From positions 64,001 to 128,000 of the forward strand of contig WJMJ01000071.1 of NCBI GenBank assembly GCA_014728035.1: 64,000 bases of DNA. Reading direction: 5' to 3'. This document shows, one piece after another, positions 31,021 through 62,239 of this stretch (within the stretch, counting starts at the first letter, position 1; every line of letters begins with the position of its first letter). Source of the stretch: Promethearchaeota archaeon (GTDB taxonomy: Archaea; Asgardarchaeota; Thorarchaeia; Thorarchaeales; Thorarchaeaceae). The notes under the pieces were generated by a model, which made no database searches, was not told the DNA's origin, and saw only the letters and a program-made list of their open reading frames with translations. Made by a program: the position numbers and the translations under genes.

Positions 31021-32184
31021 TTATCCTGGATGATGATATGGATATCTGGAACCCGATCCAGTATTTAGAAGTACAACATCCTCATCATAATCAATATCAC
31101 CCGATTCAACAAGATGTCTGATTCCAGCTAGACCAACAGCTGCTTCAGGACAAAAATCAATTCCTTCCATTCTTGCAGCGATACTTCTGGCTGCGCGGAT
31201 TTCTTGTTCTATTACAGCTACTGCACCACCTCCTGACCCTCGTAGTGCACCTAAAATAAGACGGTCTGCAAATGGACTTGGTACTCGAAGACCATACGCC
31301 TCAGTTTCTCCATTGTCCCAAGGTTCTATTGTAAGGGCATTTTTCTCCATTGCTCTAACAACAGGTGCACATCCTGCACTCTGAGCAGCATATAACCTTG
31401 GCTTCTTATAATCAAGTAATCCAATAGCTTCGAGTTCTTCTACAGCTTTCCATATTCCAATAAGAGCTGTGCCACCTCCAGTTGGACAGATAATTGCATC
31501 TGGCATACTCCACCCCATTTGTTCAGCTATCTCAAACCCTAACGTCTTTTTACCCTCTACTCTATATGGCTCTTTTGTAGTTGAAAGGTCTGTCCATCCC
31601 CCATCATATTCTTTCATCACTCTTCCTGCGTCAGTAATTGTACCAGATACCTTCTCGATATCTGCACCGTACATTTGACAGGTACGGAAAAACGGTTCTG
31701 GCGTGTCTTCTGGCATGAATATCTTAGCCAGGACTCCAGCAGCAGCTGAGTATGCACTAGTAGATACTCCTGCATTACCCGCTGAAGGCAGAGCAAAAGA
31801 TTTTGCTCCTAGCTCTAGATGTTTGGAAATCGCAACACAGAGACCTCTATCTTTGAAACTTTGAGTTGGATTCATCGCTTCGTTTTTTATCCTCAGAAGT
31901 TTCAATCCTACATGTTTTCCTAATTGCCTCGTAGTTAGAAGGGGCGTCCATCCTTCTCCTAATCTAACAACGAATGATGGTGATTTTACAGGGAGCAGTT
32001 GTGAATATCTCCATAATGAGTTTATTTTTGATGGAAACATACCTGCTTGAATCTCATCAATGACACTCATCATATCATAAATTGCAAAGAGTGGTGAACC
32101 ACATACGCAATAGCTTGCCTTTGCATCAGCTGAGTGTATTCTGTGACACTGTGGGCATTCTAAATGGGTGATGTATGAGAACAT
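31021..32184 (-). CDS. thrC: Threonine synthase-like PLP enzyme
   Basis: N-terminal Zn ribbon, LGEGWTPL, NPTQSFKDRG, SAGNAG, EGKKT, PTGGG, NTGSG. Confidence 0.9.
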   Translation of the reverse strand: MFSYITHLECPQCHRIHSADAKASYCVCGSPLFAIYDMMSVIDEIQAGMFPSKINSLWRYSQLLPVKSPSFVVRLGEGWTPLLTTRQLGKHVGLKLLRIKNEAMNPTQSFKDRGLCVAISKHLELGAKSFALPSAGNAGVSTSAYSAAAGVLAKIFMPEDTPEPFFRTCQMYGADIEKVSGTITDAGRVMKEYDGGWTDLSTTKEPYRVEGKKTLGFEIAEQMGWSMPDAIICPTGGGTALIGIWKAVEELEAIGLLDYKKPRLYAAQSAGCAPVVRAMEKNALTIEPWDNGETEAYGLRVPSPFADRLILGALRGSGGGAVAVIEQEIRAARSIAARMEGIDFCPEAAVGLAGIRHLVESGDIDYDEDVVLLNTGSGSRYPYHHPG

Positions 32185-32258
32185 GTTTTTCTCAACGATA
32201 CGTAAAGGGACAGCCTTATTTGAGTTTACCACTTTTCTTGCTTCGATGTGGGGTATCT

Positions 32259-53591: not shown

Positions 53592-53719
53592 TGGAAAACT
53601 CGCGTTCGACCCAGCTAAGTTCAAAAGACAGGCTTCCAATATGTTTCTGGGACCAATTGATGTGGAATTGGAAATTCCCAAATTAAATAACTAATATTCC
53701 TCAAATTGGAGGTTTGAAT

Positions 53720-56473
53720 ATGGCACGAGCTGAAAAAAGTAAAATTCAGACTCCAAGTACAGTTGAAGCAATTCGAATGGCATCAGCTTCAGTACTGGGT
53801 TCTACAACAAGTCAAGGATTTCCTCTGGGCAGCGCTATTGGATCAGGCAGTATGATGCAGCAAAATTCCGATAGTGTCGCATTGAATATCACTCCGCTAA
53901 TCTTTCTAATTCGTGATGGTGTTCTAAATTCAGAAGGATTAGAATTACTATCAGTCGAGTGGGATTTAGACCATGTGCCAGGGCCTGATGTTCTACCAGA
54001 ACAGCTTATAATTTCTGGAGGGCAATCTGAAGGGGTTGGGTCACATGTCTGTGTGCTTAGTTGGGAGAAAGGTGTAGTTGACCCATTCAAAATTGATGAC
54101 CATATGAAAAGGCTAGCTAAGAAGATTTCAGATATTGAACAAGCAATAGTTGAAAATGATGTGAGTTATGATACAGATGGTCTAACCGTGTTACGTCGAT
54201 TCAATGACAGACTAAATAATGTCATTTATGTTCAAATGATGGACAGGCAATTTCAAGGCTCGTGGGACTCGTTAATTCTGAAACCTGAACATGTTGATAA
54301 TGAGGCCATAATCAAACTAAGCTATATTGACGATTTTACAATGCTTCCCCCTGGTCCTAAAATTGTGAAGCGTCTGTCTCATGAACTTCTACTCCCTACT
54401 GGTTCTGAAGAAGAGATTATTGAACACTTTAGACACCGAATCCTTACTCCTACTGCAATTCACACTTTAGCACAGAAAGTTCCAGAAATTGGAAGAGCAA
54501 TCTTGAGTGAAGTCAACACTTATGCTTATAGTGCTGAGGAAGTTGATATCGCACGAGTAGCAATCGAATCCCTTAGTGATTTCATAGGCACTAGTGTAGT
54601 CACAGTTGATGCCCTCCAGGATTTACGAACAAAGGCATCAGATTTTGTGAACCATCTAGTGAATGCAGTCGATGTTTTTTCAGAACTAGTAGAAGCTCAT
54701 ATCACCTCAGGAAAACAGCTTACTTTAGATGAACACAAAGAGACTTTATTGGAAGACATTCGTCTTAGTGGACATCGCCTTGAGGGCATTGAGAAGAATT
54801 TGGCAAATGGTTTGGCTGAGGAAATTGTCGAGTCTGCAAAACGTGAGATGCCAATCATTGGTAAGATTCGAGCTTGGCAATTAAAGAGTATCTTCCGATA
54901 CTTCTTGGCATATTGTAAAAGAATATCTCAGTACTTTGCAGAAGAATTATCTCAATATATTGTTGTAACTGCAGCTCGAAAGGTATTCTTGGCTGCAATG
55001 CAAGAGTTCCGTTCTGAAAACACTGATGAAAAAACCGATGAAATGAGTGCTATGCTCTTTGAGAAATTCTACGGTGAACTTTTCCTTCAGCTAAATGCAG
55101 TGTTTGATAGGAAGGCATTCGAAGGATCCCGCGAGAGTGATTTTGCTGTCTTAATGCAGATTATTGCGAAAGATATGTCGGAAGCATTCAAGGATATTGA
55201 TATCTGGTCATTGATAAAATTCTCAGATATTGCAAAAATAACTCGTGCGGAAATAGTTCTAACCCATGCAGAAAACCCTGAATCTGAGGAAATTGTTCTT
55301 TCGGATTGGGGCCAAAAACTTGAAGCCCTCTTGACAAAGTTTGAAACACTGGTAGCTGACGTCATACCGGATATTGCAGATACCCTTCTTTCTAAACCTC
55401 TGATTCGAAGAATCATCTTGAAGATAAGAAATGAAGATGCGACTCTTGTACAAGAGTTAATGGCGATACTTGATGATCAAAAGGAGAAACCTGAGGAATG
55501 GATCGAAGAAGCATGGATGTGGATTGAAACGCTCAACTCTCAATTCGATGATGAAACTCCGCTTTCCAAACAACTGATGGATTTCCAGCGATTTGTACAT
55601 AATAAAGTTGGTGAAGGTGTTACTGCAAGAGCAATAGCTGGTAAGGTTGAACATGAGGCGAATGTTCGGGAACAGGCATATCAGGCTGAAGTTGATGCTT
55701 GGCAAGCAGAATGTGATCGAATTGAGGAGATTAACAAACCGATTCGAGAACACAATGCTAGAAGAGCAGAGCTTCTCTCAGATACACGTGCAAGATACAG
55801 TGCTGAAAAGAAAACCTACCAGGAACAACTGGAAAAGTATGAAAAAGACAAGTCTGCCTATGATAAAGCATATGAAGAGTACAGATGGAAACTTGCTCAA
55901 CATCAAGACGTAAAACGAAAATATGAAGAATTACTTGAATTATCCAAGACGGACCCTACTACTGAAGTTCCACCACCACCACCACCACCACCAAAAGAAC
56001 CTACTGAACTACCAAGAAAACCCGTGGAACCCCCTCCATTAGAACCTCGTCTCAGAGCAATAGAGGAGGATTATCCTTTGAAACAGGAACAACCACTACC
56101 TGAAAAACCTGAACCCTCTGAAGAAATGTTGCTCTATGTAGATCTTAGAGATTTACTAAACGAAAAACTTCTCAAAATGGACTCGCATCAAGATAAAATG
56201 GAATCACTTTTTGCTGAACGGTTGGATAAATTGGCAGCTGAGGGTACCAGCGCTACAAAGGGAATCAATATCAGCATTGGCGAGGAATTTTTGGAATTCA
56301 TGATGAACTCTGTAATGCGTGGTTTGGGACGTCTGTTACCAAGGCCCACAAGAGCATATTTGCGCGACCCCAAAGTTCCTGGATTGATCTACTTGGTGAC
56401 TTATGAGATTGAAGACTGTGAATTGACTGTGACGATTGGAAATAACTATCTGAAGATGGATGGAGGCAACTAA
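53720..56473 (+). CDS. Large hypothetical helical/coiled-coil protein with polyproline segment
   Basis: About 917 aa; GGAGG RBS; long heptad region followed by P8 and a Pro-rich linker. Confidence 0.8.
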   Translation: MARAEKSKIQTPSTVEAIRMASASVLGSTTSQGFPLGSAIGSGSMMQQNSDSVALNITPLIFLIRDGVLNSEGLELLSVEWDLDHVPGPDVLPEQLIISGGQSEGVGSHVCVLSWEKGVVDPFKIDDHMKRLAKKISDIEQAIVENDVSYDTDGLTVLRRFNDRLNNVIYVQMMDRQFQGSWDSLILKPEHVDNEAIIKLSYIDDFTMLPPGPKIVKRLSHELLLPTGSEEEIIEHFRHRILTPTAIHTLAQKVPEIGRAILSEVNTYAYSAEEVDIARVAIESLSDFIGTSVVTVDALQDLRTKASDFVNHLVNAVDVFSELVEAHITSGKQLTLDEHKETLLEDIRLSGHRLEGIEKNLANGLAEEIVESAKREMPIIGKIRAWQLKSIFRYFLAYCKRISQYFAEELSQYIVVTAARKVFLAAMQEFRSENTDEKTDEMSAMLFEKFYGELFLQLNAVFDRKAFEGSRESDFAVLMQIIAKDMSEAFKDIDIWSLIKFSDIAKITRAEIVLTHAENPESEEIVLSDWGQKLEALLTKFETLVADVIPDIADTLLSKPLIRRIILKIRNEDATLVQELMAILDDQKEKPEEWIEEAWMWIETLNSQFDDETPLSKQLMDFQRFVHNKVGEGVTARAIAGKVEHEANVREQAYQAEVDAWQAECDRIEEINKPIREHNARRAELLSDTRARYSAEKKTYQEQLEKYEKDKSAYDKAYEEYRWKLAQHQDVKRKYEELLELSKTDPTTEVPPPPPPPPKEPTELPRKPVEPPPLEPRLRAIEEDYPLKQEQPLPEKPEPSEEMLLYVDLRDLLNEKLLKMDSHQDKMESLFAERLDKLAAEGTSATKGINISIGEEFLEFMMNSVMRGLGRLLPRPTRAYLRDPKVPGLIYLVTYEIEDCELTVTIGNNYLKMDGGN
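55970..55993 (+). repeat. (CCA)8 trinucleotide repeat encoding poly-Pro
   Basis: Eight perfect CCA codons. Confidence 0.95.
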
Positions 56474-58940
56474 AGTGTCTAGTAACTGGTTGGTTAAAAC
56501 ACGTCAGATGAGCGAAGCTGGAAAAGAGATATTCTTAGGTGAAGCTCTGGTAACTCACATGAGGAGTTCTCGAGACCGTCAATTGTTCAGACGGCGTATT
56601 GATGGGGAAGTTCCATTGGAGGATTTGATTCGTGAGTTTGCAGCTTTTTACCTTCACACATATCAAGGGACAATAGTAATTAGCTATGAAGATACTGGGA
56701 GCGTTCCTGCAGAAGAAAAAGAAAAGGTAGCAAAAGATGAGCAGAGTCTCTTACGAGAAGAAATCAAGCTAATCCTTGATCGCCGGTTTAATGAAGGGCT
56801 TTTCACATTAAAAACCATCAGTGAATTTGTTGTGCGTTTTTGTAATGAATGTACAACTGCTGCGACAGACGAAACTGTTAGAACACAAGCTTCTGAGCTC
56901 ATCAAGGAATATCTCACAAAAATTCCAAGTGAATTTTCTCCCAATTGTAGGATAGATTTTCTAAATGAGATCACTGGTTGGGCTAATGAGTGGAGAGAAG
57001 AACTCTATATTAAAGCATCAGGATTGAAGGAGAGTTCGTTATCACTTATTGATGAACTGACTCGTCCACACGACCAAGAGATTGTTGAAATTTCAGTCCT
57101 GAAACGAGGTATCAATCAAGTGATTGGAGAAACTGTATATCTTAGAAGTCAGATAACTCCTACTTCACTAGACCCGGAAATTTGGGAGAAGATTGTCGAT
57201 ACGGTTATCAAAAACCTTTGCAAAGGCAGTATTGAAACTATTGTAGCAAAGACTGTTCATGCTTTAAAACGAGAAATCTTAGAATTCATTGAAGATAAAC
57301 TGAAAACGCCGTATACAATTGAGAAATTAGAAACTGAATTGGGTACTTTTGTTGCAGAGCGTTTTTCAGAAGTCATTATGGAAAACCAGCAAATTGCATT
57401 TGATATTCTTGATTTTTTCACCCAAACTCCTGCTGGAACCTCACAATCTACTTTGAGTAGAAACGGAGTGAGGTCTGCCGAATCTTTAGCTGAAGGCCTA
57501 TTAAAAGCATCAACGGATATTGGTGCTGAAACAGAAGTAAAACCTGAAGACCAACCAGATGCACCAGCTTTCACTAAAGAAGAATTGGAACGGTTAGAAC
57601 GCTCGATAAAACGAATTGATAAACTGGAACGGACTCTTGAGAAACCTGTTAAGGGAATGTTAAAAGCCAGAGGTTTACGAGCATCAGAGTTAGATAAAAT
57701 TGATATCACCCTCTTGACAAAAGACCCTACAAGCTTACTTGGAATGGAAATTCAAGTACTAGAGGCACTCAAAAAGAAGATGCGTGTTCCTTCACCAGAT
57801 GAGGTCAAGAAATTATTAGAAGCACGCGAGCTTGTGAAGAGTGGTGCATTGAAATCTATGGGTGTTAGTTCTGCTTCTGATATGAGTCAGCAAAGAATTG
57901 CTGGTGAAACAATGATTGCATTACGAAACGACCTTGCATGGTATTCATTTATACCAACTTTGCATCCTGTTGTTCGTGTTGTTGAAACCTATCATCGTTC
58001 CAAACAAGACCTTCTAAGAACGAAAGCACTTCTGAAAAGTATCTATGAGGATGCGGATACTCATCTACAGAACCTTCGAGAAGAAATTCTCATTGATCTT
58101 ATGCAAGAGAGAATCTATGAAATGAAGACAGTTCATCCCCATCTTCAAACAGCATCAATATCCGCTTGGTTCCATGCTCGATTGTCTAATCGTGATATAG
58201 ATCATGCAGATAATCTATTACGCACTACACCAAGCCCCCTATTTACTGGAGTCTTAGAAAAACCATTGAATGTAGATAAACTTGAATTCAATAATTACAC
58301 TATTGCATTTGATGTTATGCAACGTTTCTTGAAGCGAGAACGAGTGAAGAAGATGGAGAAAGAAGAGGCTGCAGTACAGGCAAAAATAGAAGAAGAACTA
58401 ATAGCAGAACGAAAACGTGCATCGCTCAGCCCTCTTATCTGGATTTACACAAAAAGCCATACAGTATTTCGAGCAATTGGACGAGTTGGTACAAAAGGTC
58501 TTGAATGGACCGCGACGGATGATGCAAAGTGTGCGAATCTCCTTGCATACTATGTCAAAATGCATAGAGATAGACCATTTTGTCGTGTCTGTGGGAGCAC
58601 TCCAAAAGAGGGTGATTGTGAAACTCATGGGAAAGGGCACATGGTTAATGCAGATGATATTGATAATCTGTCTGTTTTTGTCCAGCGTGCAATCTCAGAC
58701 ATCAAGGATGGTCTCATTGGTCCAACTGCAACACCTATGACTCTTGAAGAAGCAAGAAGAATAGTAAGACGAGAAATAAACGGATTACGTAGAAAAGGGA
58801 AACTCTCTTCAAAGACAAATATTTCTAGTATGATGCCAGGAGATATCAATTATATTGTCGGTCCAGTTATTGCAAAGCTAATTGGAAAATACTTCAATGA
58901 ATCACTCGTATATGCAGCACGCAGAGTAGATTTTGCATAA
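56460..58940 (+). CDS. Large hypothetical alpha-helical protein with CxxC-x8-CxxH zinc finger
   Basis: 826-aa ORF overlapping the upstream stop; FCRVCGSTPKEGDCETHG. Confidence 0.8.
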   Translation: MEATKVSSNWLVKTRQMSEAGKEIFLGEALVTHMRSSRDRQLFRRRIDGEVPLEDLIREFAAFYLHTYQGTIVISYEDTGSVPAEEKEKVAKDEQSLLREEIKLILDRRFNEGLFTLKTISEFVVRFCNECTTAATDETVRTQASELIKEYLTKIPSEFSPNCRIDFLNEITGWANEWREELYIKASGLKESSLSLIDELTRPHDQEIVEISVLKRGINQVIGETVYLRSQITPTSLDPEIWEKIVDTVIKNLCKGSIETIVAKTVHALKREILEFIEDKLKTPYTIEKLETELGTFVAERFSEVIMENQQIAFDILDFFTQTPAGTSQSTLSRNGVRSAESLAEGLLKASTDIGAETEVKPEDQPDAPAFTKEELERLERSIKRIDKLERTLEKPVKGMLKARGLRASELDKIDITLLTKDPTSLLGMEIQVLEALKKKMRVPSPDEVKKLLEARELVKSGALKSMGVSSASDMSQQRIAGETMIALRNDLAWYSFIPTLHPVVRVVETYHRSKQDLLRTKALLKSIYEDADTHLQNLREEILIDLMQERIYEMKTVHPHLQTASISAWFHARLSNRDIDHADNLLRTTPSPLFTGVLEKPLNVDKLEFNNYTIAFDVMQRFLKRERVKKMEKEEAAVQAKIEEELIAERKRASLSPLIWIYTKSHTVFRAIGRVGTKGLEWTATDDAKCANLLAYYVKMHRDRPFCRVCGSTPKEGDCETHGKGHMVNADDIDNLSVFVQRAISDIKDGLIGPTATPMTLEEARRIVRREINGLRRKGKLSSKTNISSMMPGDINYIVGPVIAKLIGKYFNESLVYAARRVDFA

Positions 58941-58961: not shown

Positions 58962-59288
58962 CTAATCCGAATCATCTCTCACTGACTCTGATATCCAACT
59001 CAAATATGTATCAGAACCACCCAATATTGGTATGATAACAAACTCAGGAACATCATAAGAGTGATTAATTTTGATGACCTCCCATAATTTGTCAGTTAAT
59101 GCTTTTTCAGTTTTCATCAGTAACAATGATTCTTTTCCTTTTTCGATTTCACCTTTCCAATGGTAAATACTCTGAACTTTTGGAAGGATATTCACACATG
59201 CACATTTCTTTGATGCAACCAAAATCTGAGCTAATGTATCCGCTTCATTTTCGGGACAGGTTGTTAGTACAAGAACGTAATCTTTCAT
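58962..59288 (-). CDS. cutA: Divalent-cation tolerance protein CutA
   Basis: VLTTCP, ACVNI, SIYHWKG, E..LLMKT, HSYDVPEF; true start ATG 59288. Confidence 0.93.
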   Translation of the reverse strand: MKDYVLVLTTCPENEADTLAQILVASKKCACVNILPKVQSIYHWKGEIEKGKESLLLMKTEKALTDKLWEVIKINHSYDVPEFVIIPILGGSDTYLSWISESVRDDSD

Positions 59289-59357
59289 ACTGAAACTGTA
59301 TACTGGGCTGGATTTATATGTGAAATGTTTGCTCGAAAGTATTGCTGGCTGATTCCC

Positions 59358-60758
59358 ATGTCTAAGAAATTCATTCCAAATGGAGTGATGCCCGCATTGG
59401 TGACTCCATTCACCAAAGACGGCGACATCATGGAAGAAGGTTTCAGAGAAGTAATTGATTATACAATTGAAAATGGAGCTACTGGTGTTGTTCCGGCAGG
59501 TACAACTGGTGAATTTGTTTACATGCGTACTGAGGAACGAAAGAAAATACTCAAACTTACTGTTGAGTATGTTAACGAACGAGTTCCAATAGTTGCTGGG
59601 ACTGGTCAAAATAGCACCAAAGCTACCATTGAATTGACAAAATATGCTGCAGATATCGGTTGTGATGCAGCATTGGTTATTTCTCCCTTCTATTTGCGTC
59701 CCTCTGACAAAGGCTACTATGAACATTATGCGACCGTAGCTAGAAAGAGTGATCTTCCTATTATTCTCTACAATATTCCACAATGTACTCTAGGTGTGCT
59801 CAATAGCTCTCTAGTTGAGGATTTAGCTGAAATTGACAATATTGTTGGAATTAAGGATAGTAGTGGAAATATCCCACACACTTTAGATTTGATTGAGAAA
59901 GTTAAGGATAAGATACCTGTACTTATTGGACACGATGAGTGTTTTCTGTCAGCTACTGCTGCAGGAGCAAGTGCAGCCATTTTAGCCTCAGCTAATGTTA
60001 TTCCTCATATCTGGTTGGACGTTATGAAAAAAATACAGACTGGAAAATACGAAGAAGCAAAACAGCTTCAATACTCTGTTCAAACTCTTTCTAGAATTAT
60101 AACACGAAATGGAGGAGCTCCTCCTGCTAAAGCAGCTCTTCGAATAATGGGTATAAATGCAGGTCATGCAAGATTACCTTTGAATACTGGTGGCACATTA
60201 ACCCGCGAACTTCGAGAAGAAATAAGAATAGAGCTTGAAAAACTCGAGTTGATTAAGCCATTGCAACACCCTGAATTAGTCAAGGAAGTTGACATGAAGG
60301 AGCTTGTAATGGAATATGGTCTAAATGAAGAATTCCTCTCCGACTTGAAAATCGGGAATGGCAGAAGCAATATAGTTTCAGCAAGTGTAATTTCAGGACA
60401 AGCGAATGGACCTCTTGGTGAAGTTTTTGTAAAACTACTTACCACTCCTAAAATCGGCTATGAAGCCCTTTCAATAATACTCGAACCGAATCTTCGCGTA
60501 CGTCCTAGTAGCTTAATGCTACCAATGCGTCAAATACGTTCTATGAGACAAGCTTCACTCTTTTATGGCCCTGTTCAATCAGGTGCTGCAAAAGCTGTTT
60601 CAGAGAGTCTGAAAACTAGGATGATTCCAAAAGAGCAAGTAGAATCCAATGTAATGATTATGGCAATGGATGTAGACCTTAACTCAAGAGATCGTAGAGC
60701 AATAACAAGAGCTGCGGAAGAAGCCGTTTCAGCAGCACTAGAGGAGATTTGGAGGTAG
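59358..60758 (+). CDS. DapA/NAL-family class I aldolase fused to a degenerate Fae domain
   Basis: PALVTPF, GTTGE, LYNIP, GIKDSSG; C-terminal LEPNLRVRP...FYGPVQSGAAKAV (Fae core). Confidence 0.88.
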   Translation: MSKKFIPNGVMPALVTPFTKDGDIMEEGFREVIDYTIENGATGVVPAGTTGEFVYMRTEERKKILKLTVEYVNERVPIVAGTGQNSTKATIELTKYAADIGCDAALVISPFYLRPSDKGYYEHYATVARKSDLPIILYNIPQCTLGVLNSSLVEDLAEIDNIVGIKDSSGNIPHTLDLIEKVKDKIPVLIGHDECFLSATAAGASAAILASANVIPHIWLDVMKKIQTGKYEEAKQLQYSVQTLSRIITRNGGAPPAKAALRIMGINAGHARLPLNTGGTLTRELREEIRIELEKLELIKPLQHPELVKEVDMKELVMEYGLNEEFLSDLKIGNGRSNIVSASVISGQANGPLGEVFVKLLTTPKIGYEALSIILEPNLRVRPSSLMLPMRQIRSMRQASLFYGPVQSGAAKAVSESLKTRMIPKEQVESNVMIMAMDVDLNSRDRRAITRAAEEAVSAALEEIWR

Positions 60759-60763
60759 ATATA

Positions 60764-62239
60764 ATGGTGAAAGATTTCAAATTCGAAGGTGTATTTCCCG
60801 CACTTGTTACACCTTTTGATGAAAACGGAGTAAATGAAGAACAGTATCGAGCTCTTATTGACTATGTGATTAAAGCTGGTGCAACCGGAATTGTCCCATG
60901 TGGTACAACAGGTGAATTTACCAGCATGAAATTTGAAGAAAAAGTTGAAGCCATTAAGATTGCTTGTGATGCTACAAAAGGACGTGTACCTGTTCTTGCT
61001 GGAACTGGTGCTGCTTATACAAATGATGCAATCAAGATTACACATCGAGCTGCTGAATTTGGTGCGGATGCTGCTTTGGTTGTTTCTCCTTATTTCTTGA
61101 AACCCACAAACAAAGAAATCTTTGAACATTATGAGAAGATAGCTAGAGCATGTGAACTACCACTTTTCCTCTATAATATTCCTCAAGTCACAGGTGTGAT
61201 GCTTGATTGGAAACTCATTGATGGACTTCGAGAGGTTGAAGGTGTTATTGGAATGAAAGATTCTAGTGGGAATCTTGTAAACCTTACTACCATTCTTGTT
61301 AGAAGGCCTGACGACTTCCAAGTTGTAATTGGACATGATGAAGTAGCCCTACCTGCATTTGCTACTGGCTGTGATGGAGCAATCCTTGCTAGTGCAAATA
61401 TATTCCCAGATCGCTATATCAAAATGCAAGCACAACTAGCTCAAGGTGACCTGAATGAAGCTCTCATTATTCAAAGGAGCATCCAAAAGACAGTTCGATT
61501 AATAGTGAATCGTGGTGGTGGTGCTATTGTTAAAGCTGCTCTTAACATGATGGGTATCCAAGTTGGAGATCCACGTCAACCGTTACTACTTGGAGATGTT
61601 CCATCCTATGATGACTTGGATGAAATCCGTACATGTCTGGAAGATCTTCTCCTCATTAAACGTGGACCTGTTAAGTTCAAGAAGGGTGATAATGTCGTCG
61701 TTGCTGAGAGCTATCCTATTGCCGTTGGTATGGTTCCTGAAATCATTACCGACTTAGAATTTATGCATGGTGAAGCACTCTGTGGTGAGGGCCAAGAAGT
61801 AGCTCATGTTGACTTGATAATGGGCCTTCGAGATGGGCCAATGCACGTGGCTGTAGAGAATGCTGGAAAAAGAGTGGAGGGATATCATTCTTCCAATGTA
61901 ATAAGCGGACTCGAACCTACTACAATATTTGCTCCAACTGTAACAATTACCCACGAAAAGCACAAAGATATGGTATACAATGTAGCACAACAAGCAGTAG
62001 TAGATGCCGTAAACCGAACAGTTACTGACCATGTACTTCCTGAAGAATTACTGAAGGATTTGGTCATTGCAGCAAATGTTTTCGTACATCCAAATGCTGT
62101 TAATCCAAAAAGAGTACATATCAATAATTTCCGAGCAGTTCGATTTGCAATCCGTAGAGCTATCGAGAAACGAGAGAGTGTTTCAGAAGTACAACTCCGC
62201 AAGGAGTCAGCTCGTCATCCCTTTGCATATCGTCCATAA
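60764..62239 (+). CDS. DapA/NAL-family class I aldolase fused to a Fae (formaldehyde-activating enzyme) domain
   Basis: GTTGE, LYNIP, GMKDSSG; HGEALCGEGQEVAHVDLIMG...VFVHP...NNFRAVRFAIRRA...ARHPF. Confidence 0.9.
   Translation: MVKDFKFEGVFPALVTPFDENGVNEEQYRALIDYVIKAGATGIVPCGTTGEFTSMKFEEKVEAIKIACDATKGRVPVLAGTGAAYTNDAIKITHRAAEFGADAALVVSPYFLKPTNKEIFEHYEKIARACELPLFLYNIPQVTGVMLDWKLIDGLREVEGVIGMKDSSGNLVNLTTILVRRPDDFQVVIGHDEVALPAFATGCDGAILASANIFPDRYIKMQAQLAQGDLNEALIIQRSIQKTVRLIVNRGGGAIVKAALNMMGIQVGDPRQPLLLGDVPSYDDLDEIRTCLEDLLLIKRGPVKFKKGDNVVVAESYPIAVGMVPEIITDLEFMHGEALCGEGQEVAHVDLIMGLRDGPMHVAVENAGKRVEGYHSSNVISGLEPTTIFAPTVTITHEKHKDMVYNVAQQAVVDAVNRTVTDHVLPEELLKDLVIAANVFVHPNAVNPKRVHINNFRAVRFAIRRAIEKRESVSEVQLRKESARHPFAYRP

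Follow-up and report, generated by a model that had tools for sequence, protein, structure and literature searches.

The window analysed here is a 64,000-nucleotide stretch of contig WJMJ01000071.1 (positions 64,001–128,000; assembly GCA_014728035.1) from a 4.33-Mb Thorarchaeota (Asgard) metagenome-assembled genome (MAG), 97.9% complete with 8.5% contamination. It carries two neighbouring genes, gene 1 and gene 2, each encoding a DHDPS-family class I aldolase barrel followed by a domain of the formaldehyde-activating enzyme Fae (Table 1). We find that they belong to a real, widespread, mis-annotated and uncharacterised family of bifunctional enzymes, a variation on known Fae fusions in which the active site is, unusually, split. 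Open reading frame (ORF) calling returned two co-oriented ORFs on the forward strand (59325-60758 and 60749-62239), whose products show 35% identity along their whole length. Gene 1 begins with the ATG at 59358, its orthologue clusters (>100) being about 466 residues long. Gene 2 most likely begins at ATG 60764, judged from its place 5 nt past the TAG of gene 1 with a GGAGG ahead of it, and this layout of the junction suggests translational coupling. A first-pass annotation, made by a model from the letters of the window, had described adjacent co-oriented paralogues with gene 1 starting at 59358, an arrangement borne out by the ORF calls and orthologue lengths. The catalytic motifs it had named, GTTGE, the Tyr of LYNIP (Y149/Y142) and the Lys of KDSSG (K177/K170), are all found in both genes, and it had correctly placed them in a window that also holds an Opp-type substrate-binding protein, GdhA, an IlvE-type (class IV) aminotransferase and AOR.

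Table 1. Features of the aldolase–Fae gene pair, in window positions, followed by loci of two orphan families (XA and XB) that lie near the fusion in other lineages, in positions of the locus or contig named.
Feature	Position	Strand	Description
Gene 1 (type 1 subunit, 466 aa)	59358..60758	+	DHDPS-family barrel and truncated Fae-like domain; ATG 59358
Gene 1 class I aldolase barrel (PF00701)	59379..60221	+	
Gene 1 barrel sites	GTTGE 59499; Tyr149 59769-59771; Cys154 59784-59786; Lys177 59853-59855	+	Cys154 at the DapA Arg138 position; Lys177 is the Schiff-base Lys
Gene 1 Fae-like domain	60369..60743	+	Pfam and alignment to Fae
Gene 1 Fae-like sites	EPNL loop 60483; YGPVQ 60564; Ser 60378-60380	+	Ser replaces the Fae His; C-terminal HPF tail lost
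Gene 1/gene 2 junction	60751..60766	+	GGAGG 60751-60755 within the end of gene 1; TAG 60756-60758; 5-nt spacer; ATG 60764
Gene 2 (type 2 subunit, 491 aa)	60764..62239	+	DHDPS-family barrel and Fae domain with His motif and tail
Gene 2 class I aldolase barrel	60779..61588	+	
Gene 2 barrel sites	GTTGE 60902; Tyr142 61172-61174; Val147 61187-61189; Lys170 61256-61258	+	Val147 at the Arg138 position
Gene 2 Fae domain	61769..62224	+	Pfam and alignment to Fae
Gene 2 Fae sites	GEALxGxGxEVAH (His353 61805-61807); VFVHP; RHPF tail from 62213	+	EPNL loop and FGPAQ motif lost
XA	L015:6683-7966	+	
XA	L010:4875-5792		
XA	L038, L039, L041, L045		
XA	G000:C103:172736-174028	-	Source genome
XB	L046:6040-6987	+	
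XB	L042:8526-9515	-	
XB	L044:8429-9376	-	
XB	L047:5939-6958	-	
XB	L040:4921-5859	-	

Profile searches recognised both parts of each protein. In the translated ORFs, Pfam assigned DHDPS (E = 2.9e-76, residues 19-299) and Fae (E = 5.5e-25, residues 349-473) to gene 1, and DHDPS (E = 2.2e-72, residues 11-280) and Fae (E = 7.8e-30, residues 341-492) to gene 2, with Fae (PF08714) scores of 88.7 and 104.4 bits, respectively, against a cut-off of 27. The C-termini are thus real Fae domains, as had been claimed from the letters, and both also align with Fae of Methylobacterium extorquens. The further claim of two full barrel–Fae fusions held for the presence of a barrel and a Fae domain in both proteins but not for their equivalence: the Fae domain of gene 1 is without the His motif and some 25 C-terminal residues and, at 83.7 bits, fails the cut-off of the NCBIfam Fae model TIGR03126 (118.05), which gene 2 just passes at 119.4 bits. 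AlphaFold2 (AF2) gave confident models of both proteins, with a mean per-residue confidence (pLDDT) of 90.2 for gene 1 and 89.6 for gene 2, and a predicted template-modelling score (pTM) of 0.77 and 0.89; Foldseek superposed the barrel of gene 2 on solved DHDPS structures with a template-modelling (TM) score of 0.94 and a root-mean-square deviation of 1.7 Å. The equivalents of the Schiff-base Lys (E. coli K161), Tyr133 and Thr44/Thr45 are kept in 23 of the 25 fusion-family members aligned. In the family alignments (A1 and A2), conservation is 90% or higher for the Lys and the Thr/Thr pair, and several catalytic columns show no variation.

Public records name this family 4-hydroxy-tetrahydrodipicolinate synthase, a DapA label that follows from both proteins exceeding the cut-off of the dapA model TIGR00674 (231.7 and 230.8 bits against 206.15). 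Together with the fact that their nearest solved structures are DapA, these scores speak for genuine lysine-pathway isozymes with an extra domain. Three lines of evidence stand against this. In DapA, the carboxylate of aspartate semialdehyde is bound by Arg138, for which, in alignments to solved and E. coli DapA, gene 1 has Cys and gene 2 has Val; across 25 fusion-family members this column holds C, V, L or A and never Arg, and E. coli NanA and YagE have Leu there. In a FastTree phylogeny of 144 barrels, which took in the fusions, the 122 unfused barrels nearest to them and three E. coli proteins (DapA, NanA and YagE), with Shimodaira–Hasegawa-like support only, all fusion barrels fell into one clade (support 99) whose sister groups also lack the Arg, and E. 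coli DapA sat within a separate 50-member clade in which every member has it. Finally, a profile search of the source genome found no DapB_C, Semialdhyde_dhC (neither asd nor argC/lysY) or Homoserine_dh domain; as asd and dapB are missing, a DapA would have neither its substrate nor a next step. The same search of this 97.9% complete genome found no other DHDPS-family gene. We therefore rejected true DapA on Arg138 loss, tree placement and the missing asd/dapB context, and regard the published name as very improbable; judged by sequence, the pair cannot encode a lysine-pathway DHDPS, as the first-pass annotation had suspected.

The Fae domains were compared in alignments that included canonical Fae from Asgard and the M. 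extorquens enzyme (1Y5Y). The full motif set, GEALxGxGxEVAHxDL, PNLxxKP, FGPAQ, VFxHP and the C-terminal HPF, is present in neither Thor chain; each chain carries a complementary subset. Every type 2 member, the kind encoded by gene 2, keeps the GEAxxG..AHxDL motif (His353 here), VFVHP, NNxKA and the ARHPF tail and has lost the EPNL loop and FGPAQ. Every type 1 member, the kind encoded by gene 1, keeps EALxxILEPNLxVxP and MRQAxxYGPxQ and has lost the His and the last ~25 residues. Single-gene forms (the P0124 cluster of 112 members, G002, G083, G101, G308 and G397) carry all Fae motifs in one chain. The Fae-domain tree separates the fused domains, as a single clade, from canonical Fae (support 100); inside that clade type 1 and type 2 are monophyletic groups with supports of 99 and 97, and the single-gene forms branch, without resolved order, at the base. 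Type 1 also precedes type 2 in distant Thor genomes, on a Korarchaeota-type contig and in three further lineages, with different flanking genes in each; the two genes are separated by a 5-nt gap in one other locus (L011), as here, and overlap by 4 nt in two more (L013, L014). The complementary halves point to one heteromeric enzyme rather than two complete bifunctional enzymes.

Complex prediction was in keeping with such an arrangement. The type 2 and type 1 Fae domains scored 0.88 in three of three runs, the best control reaching 0.14, with a partner pLDDT of at least 85 and contact agreement of at least 86%; among solved complexes 58 of 80 reached the mark, and among mismatched pairs 2 of 110. 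The predicted interface sets His348/Asp350 of type 2 (numbered on P0002:6-496) against the EAL/EPNL residues 349-384 of type 1, so that both conserved halves meet at a single interface. The score may reflect likeness to the solved Fae homopentamer (1Y5Y), and the prediction is consistent with binding between the two types rather than a demonstration of it.

We then considered whether the genome offers a pathway in which such an enzyme could act. Profile searches of the source genome found Ftr, Mch, Mtd and Mer (Mer at 392 bits against a cut-off of 349), so that the tetrahydromethanopterin (H4MPT)-dependent one-carbon (C1) enzymes presupposed by the first-pass proposal are all there. The Fae domains of gene 1 and gene 2 are the only ones in this genome, and no Hps (RuMP_HxlA) was found in it by the same means. 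In a survey of 400 Asgard genomes, those of the Thor family nearly always have exactly two Fae matches, both of the divergent fused kind (E ~1e-30); other Asgard families have canonical Fae (E ~1e-65 to 1e-72) in ORFs of ~400-450 residues, of the Fae-Hps type. With a threshold so strict that a match requires a full barrel together with Fae (E ≤ 1e-90), the architecture was recovered from 190 of the 400 genomes: 76 of 85 in the Thor family, mostly in two copies, 82 of 135 in the largest Loki-like family, in one copy, and others in several smaller families; at this threshold it was absent from families f8, f10 and f11. Among 78 Asgard genomes at least 96% complete, Mch was present in every genome of each fusion-bearing family scored, which indicates that the fusion is confined to H4MPT-using lineages; family f11 has neither Mch nor the fusion, and some Mch-positive families do not have the fusion. 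Outside Asgard, the named members are from Korarchaeota/Thermoproteota MAGs (adjacent accessions RLG49790 and RLG49791) and from one 'Anaerolineae' MAG, which may be mis-binned. Our literature search found no paper describing a barrel–Fae fusion, in agreement with the first-pass annotation, which knew of none.

On this basis we propose, at roughly even odds (a probability of about 0.5), that the pair encodes a heteromeric class I pyruvate aldolase combined with Fae, which interconverts 4-hydroxy-2-oxobutanoate (HOB) with pyruvate and formaldehyde and passes the formaldehyde to or from methylene-H4MPT. The heteromer, formaldehyde as the shared intermediate, HOB as substrate, the direction of reaction and any channelling are what we infer from the evidence above. 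An ancestral homomeric aldolase–Fae would have been duplicated, after which the two faces of its inter-subunit Fae site would have degenerated in complementary fashion, leaving a heteromer, now obligate, in which each type 2/type 1 interface forms a single composite Fae site that serves formaldehyde and H4MPT. Each subunit would retain an active class I (Lys Schiff-base) pyruvate-type aldolase barrel that, by analogy with Fae-Hps, may make or use formaldehyde, the simplest such reaction being HOB <-> pyruvate + formaldehyde. The composite site would then interconvert formaldehyde and H4MPT with methylene-H4MPT, connecting the barrels to the Mtd/Mch/Ftr/Mer branch of the genome. As to direction, we lean, by analogy with Fae-Hps, towards cleavage with capture of the formaldehyde; to our knowledge, Fae-Hps is the sole characterised Fae fusion, and the aldolase-type reaction of its partner releases formaldehyde. 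The reaction between pyruvate and formaldehyde that yields HOB is known only as a side activity of E. coli pyruvate-dependent aldolases, of which He et al. 2020 listed seven genes, and it is used in the synthetic homoserine cycle, where RhmA serves. The idea that the pair might be fed by homoserine-type carbon, put forward in the first-pass annotation, is weakened: no source is evident, and the route from aspartate to homoserine is absent in Thorarchaeota, with homoserine dehydrogenase in 3 of 86 Thor-family genomes.

Several observations weigh against this proposal. Known Fae is a pentamer, and known DHDPS enzymes are dimers or tetramers. In the barrel tree, types 1 and 2 are not reciprocally monophyletic and are intermixed by lineage, which may reflect gene conversion or repeated duplication. 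Fusion loci compared across lineages have no conserved neighbouring gene that would point to a pathway or to a source of HOB, and reviews describe HOB as a non-native metabolite. Loki-like genomes carry the fusion alongside canonical Fae-Hps. Finally, at one locus (L014; GCA_003560875.1, PWJQ01000035.1, 6544-9449), both barrels are without the Schiff-base Lys (LADSSG and ILDATG in place of the motif), GTTGE is altered in both paralogues and the Tyr is changed in one, yet the fusion persists, as do the Fae motifs of type 2, so that catalysis by the barrel is not a requirement in every lineage. As a separate observation, a gene with a RibD_C domain lies directly upstream of the fusion pair at this locus.

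The L014 paralogues, together with the fact that Thorarchaeota have no other Fae, also speak for a reading in which Fae, detoxifying formaldehyde, is the sole conserved activity and the barrel is an oligomerisation scaffold, a regulatory module or an enzyme for some unrelated 2-oxo acid. We consider this unlikely, since outside L014 almost every member of either type, however deeply diverged, keeps the Lys, Tyr and GTTGE, which indicates selection on barrel catalysis, and Loki-like genomes retain the fusion despite having Fae-Hps. The barrel might instead cleave another 4-hydroxy-2-oxo acid, such as hydroxy-oxoglutarate to glyoxylate or a 3-substituted type, with the Fae-like site taking that aldehyde or another pterin adduct. 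The superfamily does include aldolases of the HOGA, KDG and NAL types; in GEF and at the position of Arg138 the fusions look like NanA and YagE of E. coli; and the separate clade of the fused Fae domains would fit a changed substrate. The Fae domains of type 2 and of the single forms, however, keep the canonical motifs almost unchanged, the gene 2 protein (P0002) passes the Fae equivalog-domain cut-off, and we know of no Fae homologue that uses another aldehyde; we hold this reading to be a long shot. Two further roles were considered. Replacement of PanB, acting on 2-oxoisovalerate and methylene-H4MPT, was ruled out by a normal PanB in the genome (384 bits). Replacement of Fae-Hps in pentose synthesis is not supported, as the barrel is no Hps and Loki-like genomes carry both proteins.

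The same chemistry could also run in the anabolic direction, with formaldehyde from methylene-H4MPT and pyruvate giving HOB, and a transaminase converting HOB to homoserine, in place of the missing Asd/Hom route to homoserine and threonine. Several points favour this: the source genome is without asd and hom but has three ThrC-like genes, one scoring 422 bits with the threonine synthase equivalog NF006050 (cut-off 303); the window holds a class IV aminotransferase and GdhA; and HOB chemistry works in engineered E. coli. On the other side, no homoserine kinase was found in the genome (thrB at most 38 bits; TIGR02535 298 against a cut-off of 446), and the ArgC/LysY-type genes are absent too, which fits a broadly auxotrophic peptide fermenter. 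The precedent of Fae-Hps also has Fae capturing formaldehyde; its Fae is said, in work by Goenrich et al. from 2005, to capture formaldehyde and not to release it. We judge the anabolic direction rather improbable, and the stricter version, in which a dedicated formaldehyde–pyruvate aldolase, as an obligate heteromer with a split Fae site, runs from methylene-H4MPT and pyruvate through HOB to homoserine, a little more doubtful again. The ThrC-like pyridoxal phosphate enzymes lie at window 31021-32232 (-), which is the one passing NF006050, at G000:C103:174844-176340 (+), a PadR fusion, and at G000:C25:252650-253645 (-). Threonine synthase is thus present in a genome that has no asd, hom or recognisable homoserine kinase to supply its O-phosphohomoserine.

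These findings matter in several ways. Among the archaea most closely related to eukaryotes the family is widespread, with nearly all Thorarchaeota carrying it, and its systematic annotation as DapA leads metabolic reconstructions to credit a false lysine step and to miss a C1 link. The single-gene and split two-gene forms together offer a natural example of duplication followed by complementary half-site loss where two subunits share an active site. Should formaldehyde prove to be a substrate or product of the aldolase, the family would be only the second kind of Fae fusion known, and no other natural enzyme would be known to be dedicated to the aldol reaction of pyruvate and formaldehyde, for which synthetic methylotrophy borrows promiscuous enzymes. 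If the anabolic direction is true, Asgard archaea without Asd and Hom would have a hitherto unrecognised C1-based route to homoserine and threonine, matching in nature the engineered 'homoserine cycle'.

The neighbourhood of the pair holds further genes. On the reverse strand, a listed ORF of 273 aa (window 58962-59783) has a CutA1 domain confined to its last ~100 residues, and its orthologue at L011 is 105 aa long; from these lengths, a short CutA1 is probably the real gene and the overlap of the long ORF with the start of gene 1 an ORF-calling artefact. Just upstream of the aldolase–Fae pair, two overlapping large orphan ORFs on the forward strand (53714-56473, 919 aa; 56460-58940, 826 aa) have no Pfam match. 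This orphan pair, CutA1, the aldolase–Fae pair and an M20 peptidase are syntenic in other Thor genomes (L011, L048, L049), and the orphan pair is not beside the fusion in other lineages.

Two orphan families recur upstream of the fusion outside the Thor family, and neither offers a hint of function. XA (~427 aa, alignment A3) is found directly ahead of the single-gene aldolase–Fae in the Loki-like family and a further two Asgard families. Its members from across Asgard, those of Heimdall- and Hod-labelled MAGs among them, share 68-94% identity and a great many invariant positions, and the family had no Pfam, NCBIfam or Protein Data Bank (PDB) match. Because XA lies elsewhere in the source genome and lacks family matches, its position beside the fusion looks like conserved synteny rather than a specific partnership. 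An operon of XA with the ThrC–PadR gene in the source genome was considered and dropped, as a gene for an energy-coupling factor (ECF) S-component separates them and there is no sign of an operon. XB (~315 aa, alignment A4) stands beside the fusion in five other Asgard families; searches of Pfam and the PDB gave no match for it, and the source Thor genome yielded no homologue. Atlas features placed XB with U32-like clusters (0.98), which we take as a lead only. The two families are unrelated (hhalign probability 4.8%).

Among known systems, E. coli DapA (b2478) shares with the barrels its superfamily and fold (TM 0.94), the Thr/Thr, Tyr and Lys catalytic set and 30-37% identity, and differs in that here Arg138 is replaced, the clade is separate, the diaminopimelate-pathway context is missing and a Fae domain is added. 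YagE and NanA are closer at the Arg138 position, where they too have a hydrophobic residue, and YagE also has GEF, but in the barrel tree YagE lies outside the fusion clade. The HOB-active pyruvate-dependent aldolases of E. coli perform the chemistry proposed here; unlike the fusion, they are promiscuous and free-standing and have no Fae and no link to H4MPT. One of them, RhmA, is a class II metal aldolase. PanB likewise moves C1 at the formaldehyde level from a methylene-pterin carrier onto a 2-oxo acid, but its fold is unrelated and it is metal-dependent, and the source genome has a PanB of its own.

For the Fae part, the free-standing enzyme of M. extorquens (1Y5Y/1Y60; PF08714; TIGR03126) offers the same fold and motifs: the gene 2 protein aligns over residues 7-167 of its 169, with the His motif and the HPF tail, and the gene 1 protein (P0001) over residues 12-139. 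At ~30% identity, the fused domains differ from it in being joined to a barrel, in forming their own clade and in that neither Thor copy has the full motif set. Fae-Hps (NF009833), known from methanogens and other archaea, is the direct functional model for a hand-over of formaldehyde; the two proteins match it in the Fae part only (63 bits for gene 1 and 94.7 for gene 2, against a cut-off of 274). Compared with it, Fae stands at the C-terminus here and at the N-terminus there, and its partner is a class I Lys Schiff-base DHDPS/NAL barrel rather than an Hps of the orotidine monophosphate (OMP)-decarboxylase fold. The Thorarchaeota, which have no Hps, have the fusion duplicated into two subunits with complementary Fae halves. 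What unites the two systems is that, in archaea that use H4MPT, Fae is fused to a TIM-barrel enzyme of the aldolase type for which formaldehyde is, here putatively, a substrate or product.

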